From Candidatus Hodarchaeota archaeon (GTDB lineage Archaea > Asgardarchaeota > Heimdallarchaeia > Hodarchaeales > Hodarchaeaceae), in the NCBI GenBank assembly GCA_016840035.1, contig JAEOTC010000061.1, positions 1 through 11,076 of the forward strand: a stretch of 11,076 nucleotides of DNA, read 5' to 3'. The position numbers and the translations under genes are program-made. The notes under the pieces were generated by a model, which had not been told where the DNA came from, searched no databases, and saw nothing but the letters and a program-made list of their open reading frames with translations. This document shows, in pieces, positions 263 to 11,076 of this stretch (position 1 is the first letter of the stretch; every line of letters begins with the position of its first letter).

Positions 263-3244
263 TTACTGATTATATTGAGTAAAATCTGGAAAAAAAATTA
301 ACGGTTTGTACTCGTTTTTCAGAAATTTTATACGATTGTTTATATCTCTATATTCTAATGAATCTTCTAGTAACAAACAGAGAGATTTGGTATGAAGTTT
401 GTGAGCTGATTCAAAGGTCATCCACTGATTGTTGTAAAATAACATTTTTTGAAAGATCTTCTTTTTTACAAGGACCCCTCGTAACCATCTGACTAGTGAA
501 TCCCTGGGAACATAATAAGGCAGCCTATCATCGTCATATCGTTTCTGAAAAGACAAAGGAGTAATTTCACCGCTTACGATTACTTCACATAATGTTAAAC
601 GAGAGAGAATCCTCCCTACTTCTTCAAGATCCAGATGACCAGAACGCCCAGTTTTGTCTTTAGCAGTATGCACAAATAAAGGTATAGTTTCATACCCTAA
701 ACCTTGTTTCGCATTCCAGATACGTAATTGATTTCGTAACCTTCGATTAACACAATTTAATGCAGTATCAAATGGTGTATACCCTCCCATGAAATCCACA
801 CCTTTTTTCTCTTCTTTATTAACTCGTCGAGCAACACTACGACCGTAAGGACGTTGAATGAGTGGATTATTCTGATCTTGAATTGCCTGTATAAATTTAC
901 GAACTCCCTCAGCAAAAGGTCGTGAAAACCAGGCTTCTAAAGCAGATACTTGACGGAAAGATCTTAAGGATACATCTTGATAATAATTTTCTAATCTTGT
1001 TGGACATTTCAGAAGAATTTTGTTCATCCAGTAATAATATCGATTAGCTAACCAATTTTGATTATTTAAACGAGCAATTTCCGTCAGACAATAGGTCGCG
1101 TTCATTAGTGAAATCATCAAACTTCGGACATGAAGCTGTTGGAGCGCTTCACGAACTCCTGGAAGTTCCATCGTTTCTTTGATTGCCTGTGTAGGTTCTT
1201 GTAACACTCCTTTTGTTGACGAATGAATAACATCAACTCCCCAAGATTTAAAGATTTTATTTAAACGCGGTTTCCCCACGTTATAGACTGTTCGGAGCTT
1301 ATTAAGAGGGTAGGTGTCCATTTCTTTTATTCGCGGTCGTTTGATTTGAAGAATGGGAATTGTATTATTAAGTAGTGTTGCTTTATCCTCTCTTGCTAAA
1401 TTAGCGTTGTCTGGACGATAATTAAATTTTAGATGTAGATTATCATCAGCCAATGTTTGAAGCATAAAATTCCATTTTTCGGTGTCAACAAAGGTTAGTT
1501 TATCAGTAGAGTGAATAATTTTATTAATCAGTAGTTGTTTTTGGCTCTGGTCGTAATAAACGTAATCATTCTCGTGGATGTAAAGGTAACCATTTTTATT
1601 TTCTGAAAAACGCTTAATTTTCTCAATTTGAGACCGAAAAAGTTGTTTCGGTTTTAGTACTGGTTCTTCTACTTTGGTAAAATCATGTTTTGTCATTGCT
1701 TCAATCAGTAGTTCGTGGAGTCCATGTTCTAGAAAAATTCCTTGCTGCTCAATATTTTGATATTGAAAGACGTTATTTCTCGTCATTTCTGGGGAAATAT
1801 ATGAGTAATTAGCACCACACTCACAGGTAACAGATGAGTCAAAAGCAGGCACTTTCTCTAAGGATTCATGACAAAATATACAAGCAATTCTATCTCCTCT
1901 AACTGCTGATAACTGGATTGAAAAACCTCCTTTCAACTCTAAAAAGGAGCATGCTACTTTTGTAGAGAATATTGGCTTAATTCGATCATTGTAGAGTGAT
2001 TTTAAATTGTCAGGAATGGTGATATGCCCAAACGAGACTAAGTATTCAAGTCTTTTAAAAAATAAACAATCAATCTTAGTATGGGAACTATAATGGTTAC
2101 AACACACACAGGAAAAGTTGATATTTTTTCTTTGTTCACCTTGAGATCGATCTATCAGATTACTAGTGATATTGAATACTAATACACGTCGTTTCTTATT
2201 CGGATATACCTTGATATACTCCAACATCAAATGCTTACGAATGAAGGTAACTAACTCTAGTGGTTTTATCCCAACCTTGTCGAATTGCTTTAGAGATTCA
2301 GTTTTAATAAGAAATATTTTATCTCGATTCGTGATTTGTTTTTTAAATATCCAAGTAATAGCTCGTGTATATTGAGAATCATGTACTGCTTTAACAGCAT
2401 CAACCTTTTTTTCATTGTCCCTGAATGTGACTTTTGCTTCTCTTGCATGAACTAAAATATCGAAAAATGGAGGATCATAATTTTTTGTTGCATTCTTATC
2501 GGTAATTGAAACATACGTTGTTATCCAATCATATATTTCAGTCAATACCTTCAACAGGACTAACCCCCTCTCCCTATGAGGTTTTTTTGGTAAGATGAAC
2601 GGTTCTTTCGTTGGTTGATGAATAGGGATACCTCTTCTTTTCATCATTTGTTTAGGTCTTGATTCAAGCTGTAGGTAAAGCTGATTTAGATGATCCTTGA
2701 GTAAGGGTCGAATAGATGTTTTTAAATAATCACGGTCTAAATACCAGTCAAATGCTTGACAAAGGACATCTTGAAAGGTTTGAAGTTTCCATCCAGAGTA
2801 CTGATCTCTTAGGATAGAAATGTACCACTTACTACAAGATATTAGTAAGAGTTCAAAGTCTTTAATACCAATTTTTGATGTCTGATATCTATCAAAAATA
2901 AATTTATGCTTATTATGGTATAATTGAAGATAATCCAAGATTTTCAGGTTGTATGCAAGAAGAAAGGTGCCAAGAATTGATCTTTGATAATATTTACGTT
3001 TAAGAAGCCCAGCCAATCGTAATAACAATATTACTTTTTTAATAAAATCCAGATTTACTGCTGAATCAAAATAGTCGATCCATAATTTCCGGAGATGGTG
3101 AAAGAATTCTTCTTTTGATTGACTTAATCGACTGGAATTCAAGATTGAATGGAGAAATGATTCAATATTTTGGTCTGACTGGAACAATGAAGCAAGAAAT
3201 GACCTAGAGATCTCAGTTTCCAACTGAACTGTCAATCTAATCAC
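263..3244 (-). CDS. cas1: Large (993 aa) multidomain protein with Zn-binding motifs and a C-terminal divergent Cas1-family integrase domain
   Basis: The C-terminal part follows Cas1 motif order: VSALE(770)AWFSRPF (cf. LxGxEGxAAxxYF), YGRSVARR...TPFDTALN (cf. GRxRR...DPxNAxLN), GLGYETIPLFVH(859) (cf. GLDPxxGFLH), D(872)LEE(875)VGR (cf. DLMEEFR), then GEITPLSF. Cys clusters CVCCNH (~379) and CIFCH...CECG (~455-476). GTG start with an in-frame stop shortly upstream (3275-3277). Confidence 0.8.
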   Translation of the reverse strand: MIRLTVQLETEISRSFLASLFQSDQNIESFLHSILNSSRLSQSKEEFFHHLRKLWIDYFDSAVNLDFIKKVILLLRLAGLLKRKYYQRSILGTFLLAYNLKILDYLQLYHNKHKFIFDRYQTSKIGIKDFELLLISCSKWYISILRDQYSGWKLQTFQDVLCQAFDWYLDRDYLKTSIRPLLKDHLNQLYLQLESRPKQMMKRRGIPIHQPTKEPFILPKKPHRERGLVLLKVLTEIYDWITTYVSITDKNATKNYDPPFFDILVHAREAKVTFRDNEKKVDAVKAVHDSQYTRAITWIFKKQITNRDKIFLIKTESLKQFDKVGIKPLELVTFIRKHLMLEYIKVYPNKKRRVLVFNITSNLIDRSQGEQRKNINFSCVCCNHYSSHTKIDCLFFKRLEYLVSFGHITIPDNLKSLYNDRIKPIFSTKVACSFLELKGGFSIQLSAVRGDRIACIFCHESLEKVPAFDSSVTCECGANYSYISPEMTRNNVFQYQNIEQQGIFLEHGLHELLIEAMTKHDFTKVEEPVLKPKQLFRSQIEKIKRFSENKNGYLYIHENDYVYYDQSQKQLLINKIIHSTDKLTFVDTEKWNFMLQTLADDNLHLKFNYRPDNANLAREDKATLLNNTIPILQIKRPRIKEMDTYPLNKLRTVYNVGKPRLNKIFKSWGVDVIHSSTKGVLQEPTQAIKETMELPGVREALQQLHVRSLMISLMNATYCLTEIARLNNQNWLANRYYYWMNKILLKCPTRLENYYQDVSLRSFRQVSALEAWFSRPFAEGVRKFIQAIQDQNNPLIQRPYGRSVARRVNKEEKKGVDFMGGYTPFDTALNCVNRRLRNQLRIWNAKQGLGYETIPLFVHTAKDKTGRSGHLDLEEVGRILSRLTLCEVIVSGEITPLSFQKRYDDDRLPYYVPRDSLVRWLRGVLVKKKIFQKMLFYNNQWMTFESAHKLHTKSLCLLLEDSLEYRDINNRIKFLKNEYKPLIFFPDFTQYNQ

Positions 3245-3259
3245 TTGTTTTGTACAGTA

Positions 3260-3270
3260 ATTATATTTAA
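3260..3270 (-). promoter_or_regulatory. Candidate archaeal TATA box (TTAAATATAAT) for a leaderless cas1-like transcript
   Basis: Lies 16-26 nt upstream of the GTG at 3244, and no SD motif precedes that start. The AT-rich background limits specificity. Confidence 0.35.
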
Positions 3271-3308
3271 TCGGTTATTTTGTATGTTACACTTGAATCA
3301 GGAGGATT

Positions 3309-3402
3309 AGCACTGAATTATTGTTAGACTACAGTGATAAGTTCTGTATTCGAAAACAGCAGTAGAACCTTTCAATAGCCAAACAGACAATAATCCAGCG
3401 CT
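3309..3402 (-). ncRNA. Candidate structured ncRNA: ~94-nt imperfect hairpin with a UUCG tip, containing AUUGAAAG
   Basis: Manual fold of the minus strand: 16-bp uninterrupted stem AGCGCUGGAUUAUUGU/ACAAUAAUUCAGUGCU, 6-bp stem GGCUAU/GUAGUC, 10-of-11-bp stem UGAAAGGUUCU/AGAACUUAUCA, and tip UGUU-UUCG-AAUA. The six G-U pairs would be A-C mismatches on the plus strand. Confidence 0.55.
3314..3332 (+). repeat. Imperfect direct repeat, copy 2 (TGAATTATTGTTAGACTAC), upstream of the cas1-like gene and within the 3' arm of the hairpin
   Basis: 17/20 match to 241-260. Confidence 0.45.
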
Positions 3403-3411
3403 TTTTGATGC

Positions 3412-3450
3412 TTTAAAGACTTATAAAGGAATAAATGTGTATAATTATTT
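3412..3450. promoter_or_regulatory. Cluster of TATA-like boxes in the divergent spacer (TTTAAA 3412-3417, TTATAAA 3421-3427, minus-strand TTTATAAG 3427-3420, TATAATT 3440-3446)
   Basis: Positioned so that it could drive the plus-strand operon and/or the minus-strand hairpin RNA starting near 3400. Confidence 0.35.
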
Positions 3451-3479
3451 AGTATTCATTCATTACGGAGTTATATATA

Positions 3480-3932
3480 ATGGATTCAAAATTTAATAAA
3501 AATTTTTCTACTCATTCTATTCGTACTACATGTCAAGAATTGCAACTTAGACAACTATTCTACCAAGAGAATATTTCTTTTGAATTTCAAAAGCAGTATT
3601 CTTTGCCTGATCGTCAATATGTTGTTGACTTTCTTCTCCCTCAACAAACCATTTTAGAGTGTTCTTTTACTAAGATGGACAAATATCATGTCGCGTTTCG
3701 CAATAAAGCGATTACTTTAGAAGCGAAAAGCTATCAATTGAAAAAATATTTTCCTGATCTGAATATTTGGGTACTTCTTGAGACACATCGCTCTATCTTA
3801 GAAATGTTTCATCGTACTCTAATCCAATTAATGCCATCAGTAGATCAGATCTTTTTTTCCCAAAATGAGCTAAGAGAGTTTCTCCATCTCTATCGCTTTT
3901 CATCTATGAAATCAGAGGAGGTGGTTCTATGA
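3480..3932 (+). CDS. PD-(D/E)xK-fold nuclease, Vsr/DUF559-like (150 aa)
   Basis: The pattern QELQLRQLF...ISFEFQKQY...YVVDFLL...ILEC matches the E...F-x-x-Q...Y-x-x-DF...x-E layout of DUF559/Vsr-like endonucleases. GGAG SD at 3467-3470. Confidence 0.7.
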   Translation: MDSKFNKNFSTHSIRTTCQELQLRQLFYQENISFEFQKQYSLPDRQYVVDFLLPQQTILECSFTKMDKYHVAFRNKAITLEAKSYQLKKYFPDLNIWVLLETHRSILEMFHRTLIQLMPSVDQIFFSQNELREFLHLYRFSSMKSEEVVL

Positions 3933-4648
3933 GGAATACTGATGAAAAAACAATTGATATGCAGAATTTCTCCTTTTATGAATACCAATTTCCATTATCT
4001 GAATGGATCCAAGGGTCTTATTCGTTAAAGGAAATGATCTCTATTGTTACGAAGAATCTAACAATTCTTCAACAATTATATGCCTGGGAAAATAAAGGAT
4101 TCGTTTTTTCTAAACCCACACGAAGTCTCCGCAATACATTTGTGTTTTGGATCGATGAATCGCTTATTGAATCAGTTCGTGAATTTAGGAATATTCGTGG
4201 TGGACTTCCAGTATCAGATATGAAAGATAGCTTAGCTGATTCTTCAACCTACAAAGGAAAGAAAGTTTCTCCAAGACCCCGAAGAATTTTGCTAGATATC
4301 GGTTGTGATTCGCCTTCTCTAGTCAAACACTTAGAACAATTGGGACTAGAAGTTATCAGCTTATGGGAATATGTAGCTGATTTAATTCATCATGAAATTA
4401 TTGATCAATGTCACGCTCAATACATTGACCTCTTAGTATCAACTAATGAACGGGTATTAATGCCAACAGAGGAATGGATTACTTATCTGATGCCCCATCG
4501 AACACGATTATTTACTGTTCCCAGGGATATTGTCTCCAATTATGAAAATCTGGCTATAGTGATTAAACAGAAAGCTTTCCAAAAACGGCGCTACAGTAAG
4601 TGGTCAGAAAAAAACAGTCAACAAAGAGTGTTAAAGAGAAGGGGGTAA
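3929..4648 (+). CDS. Protein with an unknown N-terminal domain and a C-terminal PIN-like domain (DUF5615/Mut7-C/VapC45-like), active site partly degenerate (239 aa)
   Basis: RILLDIGCDSPSLVKHLEQLGLEVISL...HEIIDQCHAQYIDLLVSTNERV resembles KFLLDENL...LxxxLRxxGxDVxxV...DxEIxxxAxxExRxLLTxDxDF. ATGA overlap with the upstream gene; strong SD GAGGAGGT at 3915-3922. Confidence 0.6.
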   Translation: MRNTDEKTIDMQNFSFYEYQFPLSEWIQGSYSLKEMISIVTKNLTILQQLYAWENKGFVFSKPTRSLRNTFVFWIDESLIESVREFRNIRGGLPVSDMKDSLADSSTYKGKKVSPRPRRILLDIGCDSPSLVKHLEQLGLEVISLWEYVADLIHHEIIDQCHAQYIDLLVSTNERVLMPTEEWITYLMPHRTRLFTVPRDIVSNYENLAIVIKQKAFQKRRYSKWSEKNSQQRVLKRRG

Positions 4649-4655
4649 ATCAATA

Positions 4656-5558
4656 ATGGCAAAGAGTACTTCAAAACGATCGAGTGGTAAAACTGAATCC
4701 CCGTTAAAGACCATTATTCCTGACCAAACAATTTCCATTCCACGCAAGATTCTAAAAGTAAAAGCATTTACTCCTATTTGTAAGCCACTAAATGGATCAT
4801 TACCTAGTTCAAAAATCTCACACCTGTTAAAGCTATGGACTTTTGAATATCAGTATAAAAATGGAAAGGAAACAAAGACAAGCACTGCTACTGCTTATAT
4901 GATAAAAGGTTTAAGAGGAGCATTACGACATCAAGTAATGACACATTGTAAAGAACGGGGATTAGAAGTATGCCACACAAGTGATAAAGAAACAGATCAA
5001 AAAGGGAATTCTCTTTTACCAGAAGGATTTCATCTACTAGGTAGCTGTACCGACAGTGATGAATGCATAGTGCATGCAGTATTTGGATCAAAGGGAAATT
5101 CAAGCAAAATCCGCGTTTCAGCTAAACCGATAGCGAATATTAGCCATAAGACATTCCAAGCACCAGTCAGCATTCAGAATGTACAAATAGCAACTGAAAA
5201 ACGAGTAGCACTAACTTTTGAAGGAAAAGCAATACAGGACTTCGGTGAAAGGTACCTTGCAGGAGAGTTCGAGTTTGAAATTGATATAACAAAATGCACC
5301 CCTGAAGAAATGGGAATGATAATAGAAGCCACAATGTACATGCATAAACTAGGAGGGGGGTATAACGCAGGATATGCAGAACTACAAATAAAGGGGTTGG
5401 ATTTAGTAAAATCTACAACAAACAGACAACCAAAAATTACTGATCAAAATAGCTTCACCATTGAAGAGGAGATCGACGAAGAAAAACTACCAGAAGAATT
5501 CACCAATGCACTCACAGCATGGAAGAAACATCTAAGAGAATACAAAGAAGTAAAATAA
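4656..5558 (+). CDS. cas7: Cas7-group RAMP protein (Csm3/Cmr-like fold), 300 aa
   Basis: RAMP hallmarks in order: beta1 ILKVKAFTP, IKGLRGALRH (cf. SSLKGALR), Cys/His cluster and CIVHAVFGS...SKIRV (cf. CxVCxLFGS...GRL), GEFEFEI, and glycine-rich loop LGGGYNAGYA. Starts 7 nt after the previous stop, with an SD-like AAGGGGGT. Confidence 0.8.
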   Translation: MAKSTSKRSSGKTESPLKTIIPDQTISIPRKILKVKAFTPICKPLNGSLPSSKISHLLKLWTFEYQYKNGKETKTSTATAYMIKGLRGALRHQVMTHCKERGLEVCHTSDKETDQKGNSLLPEGFHLLGSCTDSDECIVHAVFGSKGNSSKIRVSAKPIANISHKTFQAPVSIQNVQIATEKRVALTFEGKAIQDFGERYLAGEFEFEIDITKCTPEEMGMIIEATMYMHKLGGGYNAGYAELQIKGLDLVKSTTNRQPKITDQNSFTIEEEIDEEKLPEEFTNALTAWKKHLREYKEVK

Positions 5559-5572
5559 GGAGAAATAGGTAC

Positions 5573-6457
5573 ATGGGCAGTCAGGAATGTAGATTAGTGG
5601 TAAGAGGACAATTATTAACTCCAATGATAACTAAAAAGATAAAATTCACACTTCTTGGGTGTAAAGCCACAATCATTAATCCACGAAGGCGTTACTACCT
5701 AAAAATTAACGCCTCAAAACCCATGTATCCATATTCCTATATCAGTTATCTGGGAAAAATCGAAATAAAAGTAAAGAGTAGCTCATTAACGGTTCTGAAT
5801 CAAAAGTGTAAATTATTACTTCAAAAAACACATATAGGAAGATATCAAAGCGAAGGATTAGGAGAAATTAAATGGAAGGGAGGATATATTGATAATTATG
5901 TTACAAAATCAGAAAAACATGTAAAAGAACGAAAATTACGTATTAGAAAAGGACTCCCATTAAAATTAACCTTAGAACAACAAAAGCTGCTGAAATACGC
6001 ATTACTCCACGATTTCTTCCACACACCCAGACATCAGTCAAAAATCTACCAGGAACCACAAATAAAAGACCAACAACTGGTAGAGAAAATAAAAAAACAT
6101 CATGAGAAGACGACCAATCCAATGATTAAACAATTTCAATACTACGACAGACTAGCAGCTAGTATAACACGAAAAATACGATCACCAATAATAAGTAGAT
6201 ATAACTGGCAAGCAAAGAAGAGCAGAAGAAGAATTAATTTCACAAAACTAGCAAAAGAAATACAGGAGGTGGCAGAAACAAATATATGGAATTTATACAG
6301 ATATATGTATGAAAGCAAGGAACTAAGATTGGTAAATGAATCAATGACTTATGGACATACAACACTACGAAATCACTTATTAGTAATAGCAAATTTGATA
6401 GTGCAGGACTTTGGAAACGAAAGTAGACAAAAGAACAAGCACAAAAAAAGCAGATAA
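5573..6457 (+). CDS. Fusion of a minimal Cas5-like RAMP domain and a Cas10-type circularly permuted HD nuclease (294 aa)
   Basis: N-terminus has beta1 LVVRGQLLTP and G-loop IGRYQSEGLGEI. C-terminus has ALLHDF (6008-6013), HH (6098-6103), YDRLAA (6146-6148) and TLRNHL (6374-6376). The ATG at 5573 is preferred over 5519 because it follows AGGAG (5558-5562) and avoids overlap with cas7. Confidence 0.75.
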   Translation: MGSQECRLVVRGQLLTPMITKKIKFTLLGCKATIINPRRRYYLKINASKPMYPYSYISYLGKIEIKVKSSSLTVLNQKCKLLLQKTHIGRYQSEGLGEIKWKGGYIDNYVTKSEKHVKERKLRIRKGLPLKLTLEQQKLLKYALLHDFFHTPRHQSKIYQEPQIKDQQLVEKIKKHHEKTTNPMIKQFQYYDRLAASITRKIRSPIISRYNWQAKKSRRRINFTKLAKEIQEVAETNIWNLYRYMYESKELRLVNESMTYGHTTLRNHLLVIANLIVQDFGNESRQKNKHKKSR

Positions 6458-6535: not shown

Positions 6536-6937
6536 TTATAGATCTTCGTACGTTTCGTCAATCTCAGTGGGTTCCTCATCTTCTTCACTTGCCATCTCTT
6601 CCATGGCGGCTTTAACTTTCAAAACATACTCTGAATAGCGCTCTAGTAAACGTTCAACGTCATCATCTGATAAACGCTCTCTTGTCACAGCTTTGACATC
6701 AGTAGCTGTTTTGGGATTAAGATTAACAAGTTGGACAGCTAGTAATCTTGTCAATTCAAAATCAGATTGTAACATTTCTAAGACTTCTTCAGAGTAGGCA
6801 GCATTTTTTGAAAGTTTCTCTGCATGCTGAGCTGTTACACGTTGAACATAGTTTATCCCCGACTCCTCTCTCATCTGAAGATATTCGTAAACTTGCCCTA
6901 ATGGTATTGGCTTTTCTTCCTTGACCTTACGTACCAA
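6536..6937 (-). CDS. rpo4: DNA-directed RNA polymerase subunit Rpo4 (RpoF, Rpb4 family) with an acidic C-terminal tail
   Basis: EEKPIPLGQVYEYL, YVQRVTAQHAEK and AVQLVNLNPKT match RpoF, and the gene is in its canonical position after rpl21e. TTG start with an upstream GGAG. Confidence 0.9.
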   Translation of the reverse strand: MVRKVKEEKPIPLGQVYEYLQMREESGINYVQRVTAQHAEKLSKNAAYSEEVLEMLQSDFELTRLLAVQLVNLNPKTATDVKAVTRERLSDDDVERLLERYSEYVLKVKAAMEEMASEEDEEPTEIDETYEDL

Positions 6938-6981
6938 CTTTTAAGATCTCCAAAAACAATTTTCCTATTCTCTCAAGATCA

Positions 6982-7272
6982 CTACTGGGCCTTCAAGTGC
7001 TCTGGACGTGTTATGATTTTTTTGTAGCTGTTTCCATCTGTAACACGTACAACATAAGCTTGACCGCGTTTTTCTAAAACGACTCCCGTTTTACCATGAA
7101 ATCGCCTATGTGGACGACTTTTTTGGACGCTAGGTTCAATGACAATATTAACCTTTGAATTTATCTCATATTCTGCTAAAGAGCGAGATAATGATGGTAA
7201 ACCTCTTTTTCGTGGGTGTTTCGAAAAGATTCTGCGTGTGCGAAAGTTAGTACCCTTTGATTTTCTGACCAT
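6982..7272 (-). CDS. rpl21e: 50S ribosomal protein L21e (eL21)
   Basis: MVRKSKG..RTR, PSVQKSRPHRRFHGKTGVV..KRGQAY, RPEHLK. The ATG at 7272 fits the family N-terminus; alternative TTG at 7287. Confidence 0.97.
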   Translation of the reverse strand: MVRKSKGTNFRTRRIFSKHPRKRGLPSLSRSLAEYEINSKVNIVIEPSVQKSRPHRRFHGKTGVVLEKRGQAYVVRVTDGNSYKKIITRPEHLKAQ

Positions 7273-7542
7273 CTTGGTATGCCCCAAATTTTCCGAGCAT
7301 TCCTATGCAATCAACTTACATTGAAGTACTCTTACAGGCTTTAAAGACAAATGGAAGGTGTTTAATTAGACTATTTTTGACTTTCTAATATTACTGGAAT
7401 TAACGTAATTATAAATTATGAGTGCCTAAGATCCTACAAACGGAAAGTCAATCTGAATTTTAGAAATAAATTAGAAATGTTGCCCAGAATATTCTACTAA
7501 AGTAGCTTTAATTGAATCTTGTGTCGGTTCTACATTTCAGAA

Positions 7543-8898
7543 TTAAATCTGGTCTGTGGACTTAAATACTTCAATTACGTCCAATTCTTTAACTTTTGCT
7601 GAGATTCCAAGTTTTTCGGAGAAACTTGGTTGTGTACGACCCTGATCTCCACTAATTAATTCTTTTACATATAACCCTCCCTCACATACGATATGTACGG
7701 TGATTTCGTTTTTAGTTACATTTTCAATTTTGAAAGAAGAAATTTTACGTGTTCTGATTTTATCTGCTCTTCTATGGGCTACTCTATGTGGGGTACGTTG
7801 TTGGATGAGTATACCTGAAAGTTCTGTGGAAATTTCCTCTAGAAATGACTGATCATCGGGTAATGATGCTTCTAAGGTCACAATTGCTCTATATGCTTTT
7901 GCGTTTCTACTTGAACGAGTTTTTATTTCCCGTACCTTAGATCTGTTTGTTAATCCGTCAATTGTGACCTCTACTTTTCCATTTGAGGTGTCAGATATCT
8001 GTTTGATAATTTTTCCAAAGTCCAGATTCCTAATCTTTGGTTCGGAAATTTCAATAACAAATGGTCTCCCTGTACCTAACATTCGAGCATCAATATCTTC
8101 TCTTCCTGAACCATGAAATTTACTAGAGATACCTTTAGCTGCTTCAAAGAATGGTGTGGTAGTATACTCTTCAACGGATTCTTGATACATCTTACCTGTA
8201 TAATTGCAATGATTGCATCCTACTCCTCGACACTTACGACAGAACCATTTAGACTGAGGAATACCTCGTTCCAATTTTTTATATCTTCCTAATATGAAAA
8301 GTGGATTACTCTTAATATCTACCTCATTATGAATCAGATCAAAGGTAAAAACGATATCAGGAGCCTTGAAATCAACCTCTGCTTCAGGTAAAAGAGTTGA
8401 AAGAATCTTCCCAAGTTCACGGTTGAAATCAGATTTAATAGATTCTCCATATTCAATGTTAAAGGTACTACGAATAATATCTTCATTATCAATGATGTTG
8501 GGGGGAAAAATTGAGCCAACTAAAAACGTAGAAAACTCATACTCGCTTACAAGATCTCTCGCTTCTTTAGCTAAACTCTCAAGAACTGGAACTGAAAGGA
8601 AATCCTGACAAATCGTACATGATAGTGTACTTGGCTCAGCTTCCGAGAAATATCGTTGTATTGATTTACTACCAATTATGAAATCCTTTGACATTAATGA
8701 TGAAATGTTATTTATGCCATCTTTCACTTGGCGATGTTTAATCTCCCATTCCATGGTTAGAAAAATCTTTAGGGCCAATCCACGCTCCCTATTAGACAGA
8801 CCAGTTAATAAATTGCCAAACTGTCTTCCTAAGCATGAATTACATGTATGATTGCTTTCAGCAAAAGGTACTACAGTATTAAAAAGATATGATTCCAT
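7543..8898 (-). CDS. pus10: tRNA pseudouridine(54/55) synthase Pus10
   Basis: CNSCLGRQF, CTIC, GRYKKLERGIPQSKWFC, FHGSGREDIDARMLGTGRPF (catalytic D), QRTPHRVAHRR, GGLYVKELISGDQGRTQPS. The ATG at 8898 follows a purine-rich SD-like run; alternative ATG at 8934. Confidence 0.96.
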   Translation of the reverse strand: MESYLFNTVVPFAESNHTCNSCLGRQFGNLLTGLSNRERGLALKIFLTMEWEIKHRQVKDGINNISSLMSKDFIIGSKSIQRYFSEAEPSTLSCTICQDFLSVPVLESLAKEARDLVSEYEFSTFLVGSIFPPNIIDNEDIIRSTFNIEYGESIKSDFNRELGKILSTLLPEAEVDFKAPDIVFTFDLIHNEVDIKSNPLFILGRYKKLERGIPQSKWFCRKCRGVGCNHCNYTGKMYQESVEEYTTTPFFEAAKGISSKFHGSGREDIDARMLGTGRPFVIEISEPKIRNLDFGKIIKQISDTSNGKVEVTIDGLTNRSKVREIKTRSSRNAKAYRAIVTLEASLPDDQSFLEEISTELSGILIQQRTPHRVAHRRADKIRTRKISSFKIENVTKNEITVHIVCEGGLYVKELISGDQGRTQPSFSEKLGISAKVKELDVIEVFKSTDQI

Positions 8899-9119
8899 TT
8901 TAAATGTCCTTCTTCCTATTCCAAGGAAATCCATTTTCCGTGCAATTTCCTCTAGTACAAAGGTTTGAAAAGCTATTTGTGGAGGCTTTTCAGCAATTCA
9001 AGCCTGAGAAGAAAGGGCAATTATTTGTTTCGAGTTTCTTCTCAAGCTTTCAAAGAATATATTTCCTCTATTCATTTACATCTGAATTGAGTTCCAAGCT
9101 TCAAAGGTGGGTACCAAAT

Positions 9120-9653
9120 CTGAAAAGAATATTTTTGATAACATCCAATACAGTGGATACTTCTAAATCCCTTTCTATTAATTCTTTAACTAGCTTTGGT
9201 CGCTTAGATGTAATTTGTAGGTGTATATCAGCGGCATTTTTTCTTTCCAATGATTTTCGGAAAAATGTTGATATCTATATTTTTTTCACAATCAATAAAA
9301 GGATTTTACACATGGATGGGTCGGTGGTAAGAGGTATTAATCCAGATGAGAGAGCTATCGCTGGAATTTTGAAACGGGTATTCCAAGGATTGCCAGTTTC
9401 AGGGATAAGCTTCTATAATGGAGAATTAAAGGATTTAATTTCAAAATATCAACCTGTCATACTTGATGTCCATGGAGAGGTAAATCAAGAATTTATCCGT
9501 GCTAGTCACTCCTTTATTATAGGTGATCAAGTTGGGTATCCAAAGGAATTCGAAGAAGTATTTTCTGTGTTAAAAAAGATATCTTTAGGTATTAACGAGT
9601 ATTTGAGTTCCCAGACTATATCGATTGTAAATTATATTCTTGATCAAGTCTAA
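9120..9653 (+). CDS. trmY: tRNA (pseudouridine(54)-N1)-methyltransferase TrmY (SPOUT family)
   Basis: GRLDVICRCISAAFFLSNDFR, GINPDERAIAG, FIIGDQVG, ISLG..YLSSQTI. Family similarity starts at LKRIF. Start is uncertain: CTG 9120 after AGGTGG, or TTG 9087. Confidence 0.9.
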   Translation: MKRIFLITSNTVDTSKSLSINSLTSFGRLDVICRCISAAFFLSNDFRKNVDIYIFFTINKRILHMDGSVVRGINPDERAIAGILKRVFQGLPVSGISFYNGELKDLISKYQPVILDVHGEVNQEFIRASHSFIIGDQVGYPKEFEEVFSVLKKISLGINEYLSSQTISIVNYILDQV

Positions 9654-9834
9654 TTCGATATAATGGGGGTACTATCGCTACTACCAGGGAGGAAGTCATT
9701 ATTAAAGCACAGGTGGATGATGAAATAAATCAAAATGTTGGATCATCTCCATCGAACTGAACTCAAAACCAAAAATATTAACCAAAAAAATTATTTGAGA
9801 TATTCGTATCGGTCGAAAATTAGAGGTAGACAAG

Positions 9835-11076
9835 TTGCTAGATTCACTAGGATCGTCATTGCGTAAAACAATAATGAAAATAAGAGGAGCCCCTATTGTC
9901 GATGAAAAATTAATCAATGAATTAATGAACGATTTAGAAAATGCATTACTTGGGGCGGATGTGAATTTAGACTTAGTTTTAAACATGTGTGATGCAGTAC
10001 GAGAGAAAGCATTGAAGGATAATATCCCTCCAGCTTTAAGCCGTCGTGATTACACATTAAAGGTTATTTATGACGAATTAACCGTTCTCTTAGGGAAAAA
10101 ACATAACCCATTGCGATTAAATCCTAATGAGAAATCGATATTACTACTTATAGGAATTCAAGGCTCTGGAAAGACAACAGTAATAGGAAAACTTGCGAAT
10201 TATTATCAAAAACGTGGGTTTAAAATCGGAGCTATCGGTGGAGATACATTCCGGCCAGGTGCTCTTGCCCAGCTTCAACAAAATCTTGCACCAATTGATG
10301 TAGAAGTTTATGGCAACGAAAAAGAGAAAAAAGCCACAAATGTCATTAAAAAGGGATTAAAATACTTTGATGAAAAGAAGAACATTAATCTTATTTTAAT
10401 CGATACTACAGGGCGGCATAAAGAAGAAAAAGCTTTATTAAAGGAAATGCAATCTATAGCTAAGGTTGCCAAACCAACTGAAATAATTCTCGTTGTTGAT
10501 GCAACAATTGGACAGCAAGCTCAAGCTCAAGCAGATGCATTTAATCGTACAACCCCTCTAGGATCGATTATACTAACAAAACTAGATGGATCGGCAAAAG
10601 GTGGTGGTGCAGTCTCTGCTGTATCTGTTACAGGAGCGGTAATTCGTTTTTACGGGGATGGTGAAAGAATTCAGGATCTAGAAGAATTTAACCCAACAAG
10701 ATTTGTCGGTTCTCTCTTAGGAATGGGCGATTTAGAGGGGTTGGTAACAAGGGTAAATGAGGCATTTGATGAAGAGGATACAGCAGAAATTCGAGATGCG
10801 TTTAAGCGAGGTAAAATCACTCTAAGACATTTTCAGAAGCAAATGGAAACGGCAAACAAACAATCTTCAATAGGAAAGTTGGTTTCAAAAATACCTGGGG
10901 TTAGTGGTATGATGGGCCAACAGACAGATCTAGAAGAGGAGAGTAGAATAGGTATGAAACGATTTCTCGCAATTTGTGGGTCAATGACCGAAGAAGAACT
11001 TGATGATGCTCGAATAATTAAAGGAAAGCGAATACAACGTATCGCTCGAGGTTCAGGCACTTCACCACAAGAAGTA
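9835..11076 (+). CDS. srp54: Signal recognition particle 54 kDa protein (SRP54/Ffh), 3' end beyond the window
   Basis: Not in the supplied ORF track; translated by hand from the TTG at 9835 (SD GAGGT 9823-9827): MLDSLGSSLR...ALLGADVN, GIQGSGKTT, DTFRPGA, DTTGRH, TKLDGSAKGGG, M-domain SMTEEEL...RIARGSG. Confidence 0.97.
   Translation, partial: MLDSLGSSLRKTIMKIRGAPIVDEKLINELMNDLENALLGADVNLDLVLNMCDAVREKALKDNIPPALSRRDYTLKVIYDELTVLLGKKHNPLRLNPNEKSILLLIGIQGSGKTTVIGKLANYYQKRGFKIGAIGGDTFRPGALAQLQQNLAPIDVEVYGNEKEKKATNVIKKGLKYFDEKKNINLILIDTTGRHKEEKALLKEMQSIAKVAKPTEIILVVDATIGQQAQAQADAFNRTTPLGSIILTKLDGSAKGGGAVSAVSVTGAVIRFYGDGERIQDLEEFNPTRFVGSLLGMGDLEGLVTRVNEAFDEEDTAEIRDAFKRGKITLRHFQKQMETANKQSSIGKLVSKIPGVSGMMGQQTDLEEESRIGMKRFLAICGSMTEEELDDARIIKGKRIQRIARGSGTSPQEV

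Follow-up and report, generated by a model that had tools for sequence, protein, structure and literature searches.

A Cas1-fold protein beside a RAMP pair in an Asgard archaeon: an array-less locus best read as a diverged class 1 CRISPR-Cas derivative

What kind of system, if any, is formed by five genes of an Asgard archaeon that recall CRISPR-Cas proteins (CRISPR, clustered regularly interspaced short palindromic repeats) at a site where no CRISPR array is found? The question is raised by bases 263-6457 of the DNA studied here, in which one gene on the minus strand and four genes on the plus strand form two arms diverging from a 235-nt spacer. The window, that is, the whole stretch analyzed, is the entire 11,076-bp contig of a metagenome-assembled genome (MAG) of 4.3 Mb in 293 contigs, 87% complete and with 36% GC. 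According to homologue searches, it is most closely related to MAGs named Hodarchaeales and to Heimdallarchaeota B3_Heim. In an earlier note, made from the letters alone, the genes were read as an array-less CRISPR-derived system composed of a giant Cas1, a nuclease, a PIN protein, a Cas7-like protein and a Cas5-HD fusion, with a candidate RNA. Here, the encoded proteins are termed P0001 (also Cas1L) to P0005. The best explanation of the whole is that the locus represents an array-less, highly diverged class 1 (type III-like) CRISPR-Cas derivative of Asgard archaea that serves nuclease-based defense, an explanation which is on balance favored, with considerable reserve. The identity of the parts is held with high confidence, and the defense mechanism proposed below is put forward tentatively, with doubt slightly prevailing.

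Regarding Cas1L, sequence comparison gave no connection to Cas1. No match was obtained in Pfam, NCBIfam or PADLOC, nor in the PDB by phmmer or by hmmsearch with an 18-member profile. PF01867, the Pfam Cas1 family, found nothing at E<=1 in Cas1L or in the whole genome, and the hhalign probability with 14 canonical Asgard Cas1 proteins was 8.8%. The homologues of Cas1L (n=22) all belong to Asgard archaea, and a Pfam domain was detected in 0/22. A model of aa 540-993 was then built with AlphaFold2 on the family alignment, with a predicted local distance difference test score (pLDDT) of 84.5. All of the Foldseek matches at E<=1e-3 (59/59) were Cas1 or casposase, the best being 4n06 at 9.5e-10. In VIA-align, the model was superimposed on Cas1 of A. 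fulgidus (4n06) with Z 20.6 and a root-mean-square deviation of 3.0 A over 261 aligned residues. A Cas6-reverse transcriptase-Cas1 fusion, Cas4/Cas1 complexes and casposase came next at Z 19-20 (casposase 6opm, Z 19.7). The matched region corresponds to model residues ~73-447, equivalent to aa 612-986 of P0001, and both Cas1 domains are covered. As modeled, the C-terminal part of Cas1L is a true Cas1 fold, detected by fold search alone, and the giant Cas1 of the earlier note, for which a Foldseek check had been proposed, was confirmed in this manner. Furthermore, residues E770, H859, D872, E874 and E875 are invariant among 18 Cas1L homologues, and the block H-T-x-K-D-K-T-G-R-S-G-H-L-D-L-E-E-V-G-R resembles H-T-D-R-S-G-K-P-S-L-x-L-D-L-x-E-E-F-R of canonical Asgard Cas1. 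The correspondence is at the level of motifs, H-x12-DLEExxR as against H-x10-LDLxEEFR. The active site looks intact, since the catalytic residues are invariant and the motif block has its counterpart in canonical Asgard Cas1. Directly ahead of the Cas1 N-domain there is an extra beta-rich segment (aa 540-611). Conserved cysteines in the N-region of the family alignment (C379, C382, C393, C432, C455, C458, C474 and C476) form clusters that are probably zinc ribbons. A Cas2 partner was sought with PF09827, which had no match in the genome at its 87% completeness. Prediction of a complex of two copies of the Cas1 domain with P0002 scored 0.00, which gives no verdict and is evidence neither way. 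In two loci (L011 1050-3338 and the locus of P0019), a DEAD/Helicase_C/MZB helicase gene is situated directly downstream of the Cas1L-like gene. Its equivalent could be missing here, where the known sequence past the Cas1L gene extends for only 262 nt before the contig ends.

In the opposite arm, P0004 is a Csm3/Cas7-like RAMP by its profile matches. The Pfam family RAMPs (PF03787) matched at 27.9 bits (cut-off 22.1), the PADLOC Csm3 models matched at 2.6e-6, and a 33-member profile retrieved type VII Cas7 (3.5e-4), Cas7-11 and gRAMP chains from the PDB, in agreement with the Cas7-like reading made earlier. Homologues of P0004 (n=94) are nearly all from Asgard archaea where the source is named, and many carry a RAMP or Csm3 annotation already. 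A conserved C/H cluster, in which C106, H107, H126 and C131 are invariant and C137 is retained in at least 90%, suggests a zinc site. P0005 was modeled by AlphaFold2 with pLDDT 90.1. Residues 2-115 form an RRM/RAMP domain to which RAMP subunits of types III, IV, VII and I-A were matched at Z 7-8.6, and the glycine-rich loop of RAMP proteins is conserved as G-x-x-E-G-x-G-x-I-x-W. Residues 132-288 resemble the HD domain of Csm1/Cas10 (6ifn_A, Z 8.7; 7v01_F, Z 8.6; 6o74_A, Z 7.6), and it should be kept in mind that for helical domains a Z <13 may reflect generic similarity. The HD alignment comprises 142 residues at 16-17% identity and falls within chain residues 1-221/229 of Csm1/Cas10. CRISPR proteins occupied 48 of the top 50 structural rows for P0005. 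Moreover, H146, D147, H154, H176 and H177 are invariant among 37 sequences and D192 is kept in at least 90% of them; the Pfam HD family scored 19 bits, below its cut-off of 22. The model therefore points to an HD domain that likely has Cas10-type affinity. In the top rows for the N-domain, chains of Csm4, Csf3 and Cas5a size are mixed with Csm3, Cmr and Cas6 within 1 Z unit. A Cas5 rather than a Cas7 reading is favored, because the gene is positioned after cas7 and the domain is fused to the one with which Cas5 is in contact in type III complexes. The fusion of a Cas5-like RAMP to HD stated in the earlier note was thus supported by the model.

The arrangement of the genes was read directly in the sequence and is as first described. 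P0002 and P0003 are joined by an ATGA overlap (3929-3932) preceded by GAGGAGGTGG, P0003 and P0004 are separated by a 7-nt gap with AGGGGGT ahead, and P0004 and P0005 by a 14-nt gap with AGGAG ahead. These motifs are purine-rich Shine-Dalgarno motifs. The open reading frame (ORF) of P0005 opens at 5519, and orthologue alignment places the true start at M19, at 5573. The features are collected in Table 1. General library scans of the window ORFs produced no match to cas2, cas6, cas3, a large subunit or PolB, and Tandem Repeats Finder detected no CRISPR array in the window, as had been stated before.

Table 1. Coordinates of the features of the five-gene locus within the 11,076-bp window.
Feature	Position	Strand	Description
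P0001 = Cas1L	263-3244	-	993 aa; N-terminal ~610 aa + C-terminal Cas1 domain; Asgard-specific
Cas1-fold region of P0001, aa 612-986 (modeled)	287-1411	-	beta N-domain + alpha-helical catalytic domain
Divergent promoter region	3245-3479		TATA-like TTTAAAGACTTATAAAG at 3412-3428, conserved TCCAGCGCTTTT just upstream
94-nt hairpin	3309-3402	- (Cas1L strand)	candidate leader/small RNA element, local not system-wide
P0002	3480-3932	+	150 aa; possible PD-(D/E)xK-type nuclease; constant Cas1L neighbor
P0003	3929-4648	+	239 aa; fold unassigned
P0004 = Cas7-like RAMP (Csm3-like)	4656-5558	+	300 aa; conserved C/H cluster
P0005 = Cas5-like RAMP (aa 2-115 from M19) + likely Cas10-type HD (aa 132-288)	5573-6457	+	294 aa

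The two proteins at the head of the plus-strand arm were less readily placed. In P0002, residues E20, D50, E60, K76, E101 and D122 are invariant. The first three display Hjc-like spacing, the Lys at +2 being replaced by Ser or Ala and K76 being invariant. No Pfam match was found, the best PDB match, T7 endonuclease I, had E=2, and the hhalign probability for Hjc was 0.3%, the same as controls. P0002 is possibly a PD-(D/E)xK nuclease, judging from this motif; of the nuclease assignment in the earlier note, the invariant motif residues stood and a significant family or PDB match did not follow. The PIN assignment of P0003 was abandoned. Seven members had no Pfam match and no PDB match was obtained, and when nine PIN domains encoded in this genome were compared by hhalign, the probability was 0.2%, from a shallow alignment (effective number of sequences, Neff, 2.2). 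An exhaustive profile search recovered 22 relatives of P0003 among 1.84 billion representatives, none of which links to a known family, and a 1451-aa match to the profile was a low-complexity artefact. The N-half of P0003 (aa 45-111) is homologous to P0228 (hhalign 98%), a 220-aa metagenomic ORF (L068 70-732) that continues into Helicase_C with a Q-x-x-D-R-x-H-R-I-G-Q motif. The ORF is carried by a 775-bp scaffold, in which an assembly chimera is possible. P0003 was not accepted as a Helicase_C relic, generic Helicase_C profiles giving 3%, and the link to P0228 serves as a lead only.

Among known systems, those called ARAMP, with a distinct Cas1, were reportedly described by Makarova et al. 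in 2020 in CRISPR J. ARAMP systems occur in Asgard archaea and contain strongly diverged homologues of Cas7 and Cas5 together with further nucleases; they have no array, and most loci include a distinct Cas1 (Koonin and Makarova 2022, PMC8730458). The Asgard host, the diverged Cas7 and Cas5, the absence of an array and the distinct Cas1 of the present locus all correspond to that definition; no difference can be demonstrated, the comparison being made with the description in PMC8730458. An orthologous locus of 65% identity exists in Heimdallarchaeota B3_Heim, the genome of which has been public since 2017. The locus therefore matches an ARAMP-type module, a class already known from genomics and functionally uncharacterized, which agrees well with the earlier statement that the class was known without functional characterization. 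No experimental study of ARAMP was found in the literature searched. In the type III core, the HD domain belongs to Cas10, Csm4/Cmr3 is the Cas5 subunit and Csm3/Cmr4 is the Cas7 subunit. The likeness of the present locus to that core is seen in P0005, whose best matches are Csm1 HD domains and RAMPs of types III, VII and IV, and in P0004, which matches Csm3. Cas10 sits on Cas5 in type III; in the present locus, HD and the Cas5-like domain are parts of one protein. In contrast to type III, the locus has no Cas10 palm/cyclase, Cas11, Cas6, array or CARF effectors, and its HD domain is joined to a RAMP of ~115 aa. Subtype IV-C is likewise a reduced class 1 effector with a Cas10-type HD, on Csf1, as its only enzymatic part (PMC8730458), but there the HD is carried by the large subunit and not by Cas5; moreover, type IV systems usually possess arrays and DinG or other helicases, and no Cas1. 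The HRAMP modules of Haloarchaea (Makarova et al. 2019) share the array-less Cas5/Cas7 pair, the extra nucleases and a weak type III affinity, and differ by their lack of Cas1, the comparison resting on their description; they are predicted to be a non-CRISPR defense system (PMC8730458). Casposases and Cas1-solo proteins resemble Cas1L as Cas1 folds outside a CRISPR context, casposase 6opm scoring level with CRISPR Cas1. They are distinguished by the absence here of PolB and of terminal inverted repeats (TIR) or target site duplications (TSD), by the ~610-aa extension of Cas1L with cysteines of putative zinc clusters, and by its constant pairing with P0002.

The relation between the two arms was analyzed in 28 loci retrieved by a search with the Cas7-like profile. 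In 27 of these the Cas7-like gene and the Cas5-HD gene are direct neighbors, and in the 28th the contig breaks off within the Cas7-like gene. The P0002/P0003 arm is present in about nine of the 28, and the Cas1L gene also in seven. The five-gene order occurs twice in B3_Heim, once with a Cas1L of 993 aa (65% identity) and once with a Cas1L of 1336 aa (33% identity), and also in Hodarchaeota and Promethearchaeota MAGs; Cas1L paralogues within the same order are 30-33% identical. In the Heimdall-type loci (L018-L031), Cas1L is absent, the pair adjoins a gene for a ~530-aa LAGLIDADG-domain protein in ~13 cases (with a recognizable copy in 11 of 14 loci), Cas5-HD is longer (330-370 aa) and aEF-2 follows downstream in four of the LAGLIDADG loci. 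In a few loci the RAMP pair stands alone. Among 301 sampled Asgard genomes, Cas1L is present in 13, the Cas7-like gene in 22 and both in eight, and in all eight the two genes lie within ~6 kb on one contig. P0002 is the divergent neighbor of Cas1L in all Cas1L loci read. This includes the RAMP-less variant (L002 4604-7918, equal to L066 5382-8696), in which a 983-aa Cas1L faces a 1104-aa protein whose first 150 aa resemble P0002 and whose other ~950 aa have no Pfam match or RAMP signal. The idea that this Thor-named neighbor unites all four operon proteins in one chain was discarded, only the first 150 aa matching P0002. P0002 thus accompanies Cas1L throughout, and the RAMP pair forms a core that can exist separately. 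Each arm can function on its own, given that there are Cas7-like-positive genomes without Cas1L and a Cas1L variant without RAMPs. Functional coupling, though not obligatory, is argued for by the long-standing linkage across deeply diverged Cas1L paralogues, and we consider it probable. Of the earlier claim that the arms form one system, the adjacency in every sampled genome holding both was upheld; a general co-occurrence was not, the arms standing together in part of the loci and the RAMP pair often lacking Cas1L. The module is restricted to Asgard archaea and patchy, and is placed in different flanks among relatives. Several Cas7-like matches contain an in-frame stop, which represents either a pseudogene or a match extending past the start codon.

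Nuclease-based defense is the most likely role of such a module. In this variant the RAMP pair is co-transcribed with the putative nuclease P0002 and with P0003, and Cas1L runs divergently from this operon. In the mechanism proposed, Cas7-like subunits capped by Cas5-HD would constitute a minimal type III-like effector, assembling on RNA that does not derive from a CRISPR array, and the HD site would cut nucleic acid as a means of defense. Cas1L and its obligate partner P0002 would supply DNA cutting and joining, for the capture of fragments or for integration.

The same pair could instead be the transposase or integrase of a mobile element, as in casposons or aCas1-TnpB elements, with the RAMP pair as cargo or as RNA-guided targeting machinery similar to that of CRISPR-associated transposons (CAST). 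Cas1-family enzymes act as transposases in casposons, and Asgard Cas1 variants have been proposed as transposases of TnpB elements (PMC10691335). A patchy distribution, up to 8 copies per genome and different flanks in close relatives form a pattern typical of a defense or a mobile module, so that the changed flanks in 65%-identical relatives and the multiple copies (up to 7-8 Cas7-like copies per genome in G041, G123 and G259) are compatible with mobility. TnpB genes are found near one Cas1L locus. However, the window itself contains neither PolB nor TnpB, and comparison of the two sides of the five-gene block gave neither direct nor inverted repeats, of TIR or TSD type, beyond the shuffled expectation, such as would be looked for in a casposon. 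A 14-nt direct repeat bracketing Cas1L (241-254 and 3314-3327) was set aside as one of 20 comparable families of chance repeats. Moreover, in the loci termed class B the RAMP pair without Cas1L is kept at a fixed chromosomal site. A mobile element is accordingly regarded as unlikely.

A further possibility is that two independent systems, a Cas1L and P0002 unit and a Cas7-like/Cas5-HD unit, are neighbors in a spot resembling a defense island. The absence of Cas1L from 14 of the 22 Cas7-like-positive genomes and from loci of classes B and C would be expected in that case, as would the fusion of P0002 with other sequence beside a Cas1L lacking RAMPs. Chance proximity is nevertheless difficult to reconcile with the adjacency in 8/8 sampled genomes that hold both, with a divergent order that is kept even though the Cas1L subfamilies share only 30-33% identity, and with the translational coupling of P0002 and P0003 to the RAMP genes. 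We regard independence of the units as decidedly unlikely.

The genes around the module raise a third alternative. The other ORFs of the window are housekeeping genes according to the general library scans (RpoF, L21e, Pus10, TrmY and SRP54, 6536-11076). Elsewhere the module is flanked by RNase P p30/Rpp14/L15e, TGT, L11/TruD/L34e, S15 or aEF-2, so that translation or RNA-modification genes are nearly always adjacent, a pattern which could reflect an insertion-site preference or a functional link. Such flanks in 6/7 independent contexts, together with the binding of heterogeneous cellular RNAs by type IV-B systems (PMC8730458), would suit a role outside defense, in the metabolism of RNA or ribosomes, in which an RNA-binding RAMP complex might, for instance, survey or process cellular RNAs. 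It should be noted that the flank pattern was noticed after the fact. The patchy presence (22/301 genomes) and swings in copy number fit accessory rather than housekeeping genes, and the nuclease and integrase sites are conserved. This role is improbable. With regard to the neighbors themselves, Pus10 and TrmY are divergently arranged with a slight overlap (7543-9653). Pus10 is the tRNA pseudouridine 54/55 synthase and TrmY the pseudouridine-54 N1-methyltransferase, acting in consecutive steps at the same tRNA position.

The candidate RNA was analyzed in the divergent spacer. On the Cas1L strand, the 94-nt hairpin folds with a free energy of -32.1 kcal/mol (z -4.4, 0/200 shuffles), the value for the opposite strand being -18.3. 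It would be part of the Cas1L mRNA 5' leader, immediately downstream of the bidirectional TATA-like block. In the B3_Heim locus (L001), a stem with the same 94-nt span is observed in which the outer stem recurs, and 4/4 differences between the arms are G.U-compatible on the Cas1L strand, which hints at selection at the RNA level. The interior of that hairpin is not conserved, and the fold as a whole is no better than shuffles (z ~0). In other loci the hairpin is absent, and the spacers, 38-276 nt in most and 939 nt in L067, are unrelated and display no consistent structure. Alignment of six orthologous intergenic regions revealed conservation of the promoter-proximal block only, and Rfam provided no match to the hairpin at E<=1. 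The hairpin is therefore at best a local regulatory element and not a system-wide guide; of the RNA proposed in the earlier note, the strong structure in this window stood, and its standing as a conserved component of the system fell, the outer stem recurring only in the closest relative. TCCAGCGCTTTT, which contains the palindrome AGCGCT, is found just upstream of the TATA-like box in three loci (window 3390-3428, L001 9756-10000, L002 7919-8000), the RAMP-less variant among them, and may be a binding site for a regulator. That Cas1L and P0002 form an integrase directed by the RAMP complex with a locus RNA such as the 94-nt stem element is a long shot. If it were true, the module would be a CAST-like system for RNA-guided DNA insertion or memory, built on Cas1 and not on Tn7 proteins.

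The absence of an array extends beyond the window. A k-mer array finder detected nothing CRISPR-like in the whole genome, its two matches being coding repeats; a ~72-nt periodic repeat that it flagged on contig C24 (17-700) was an imperfect tandem repeat of coding type rather than a CRISPR array. Applied to 438 kb of related loci, the same finder again gave no array, and in a control it detected arrays beside 8/20 canonical Asgard cas1 loci. In profile searches, the genome yielded no Cas2, canonical Cas1, Cas4 above cut-off or second RAMP. These results bear on a refuting condition of the earlier note, a complete canonical cas locus and array nearby. That the five genes are a fragment of an ordinary CRISPR-Cas locus, with the array and other cas genes past the nearby contig end or in the missing part of the MAG, is very improbable, for no such genes were found in the whole genome, orthologous modules on contigs of 40-95 kb have no cas genes or arrays within 8-10 kb, and canonical Cas1 occurs in 1/7 sampled genomes of the genus as compared with 54/151 across the phylum.

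Several observations weigh against an array-less class 1 derivative acting in defense. CRISPR arrays are frequently missed in assembly, and the completeness of the MAG is 87%. The hairpin, as the sole structured RNA candidate, is not conserved across loci, and no RNA partner was identified. Furthermore, the majority of Cas7-like-positive genomes (14/22) are devoid of Cas1L, and one variant pairs Cas1L with the 1104-aa P0002 fusion and has no RAMPs. As regards the proteins, P0002 and P0003 are without a verified fold, the HD match of P0005 at Z 8.7 lies in the range that may be generic for helical domains, and Z 7-8.6 in the modeled N-domain of P0005 does not separate Cas5 from Cas7.

The locus is an orthologue of a published class and leaves present understanding as it was. 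The present analysis adds an assignment of Cas1 at the level of structure (Z 20.6) and a likely Cas10-type HD domain on the Cas5-like protein. Read in this way, the HD domain would be the only enzymatic remnant of the type III large subunit, and its fusion to the Cas5-like subunit would result in a compact, two-protein putative effector. ARAMP modules, in which an integrase of the Cas1 family is joined to a RAMP core of two proteins and the array is absent, rank among the most reduced CRISPR derivatives known and are carried by the archaeal lineage that is closest to eukaryotes.

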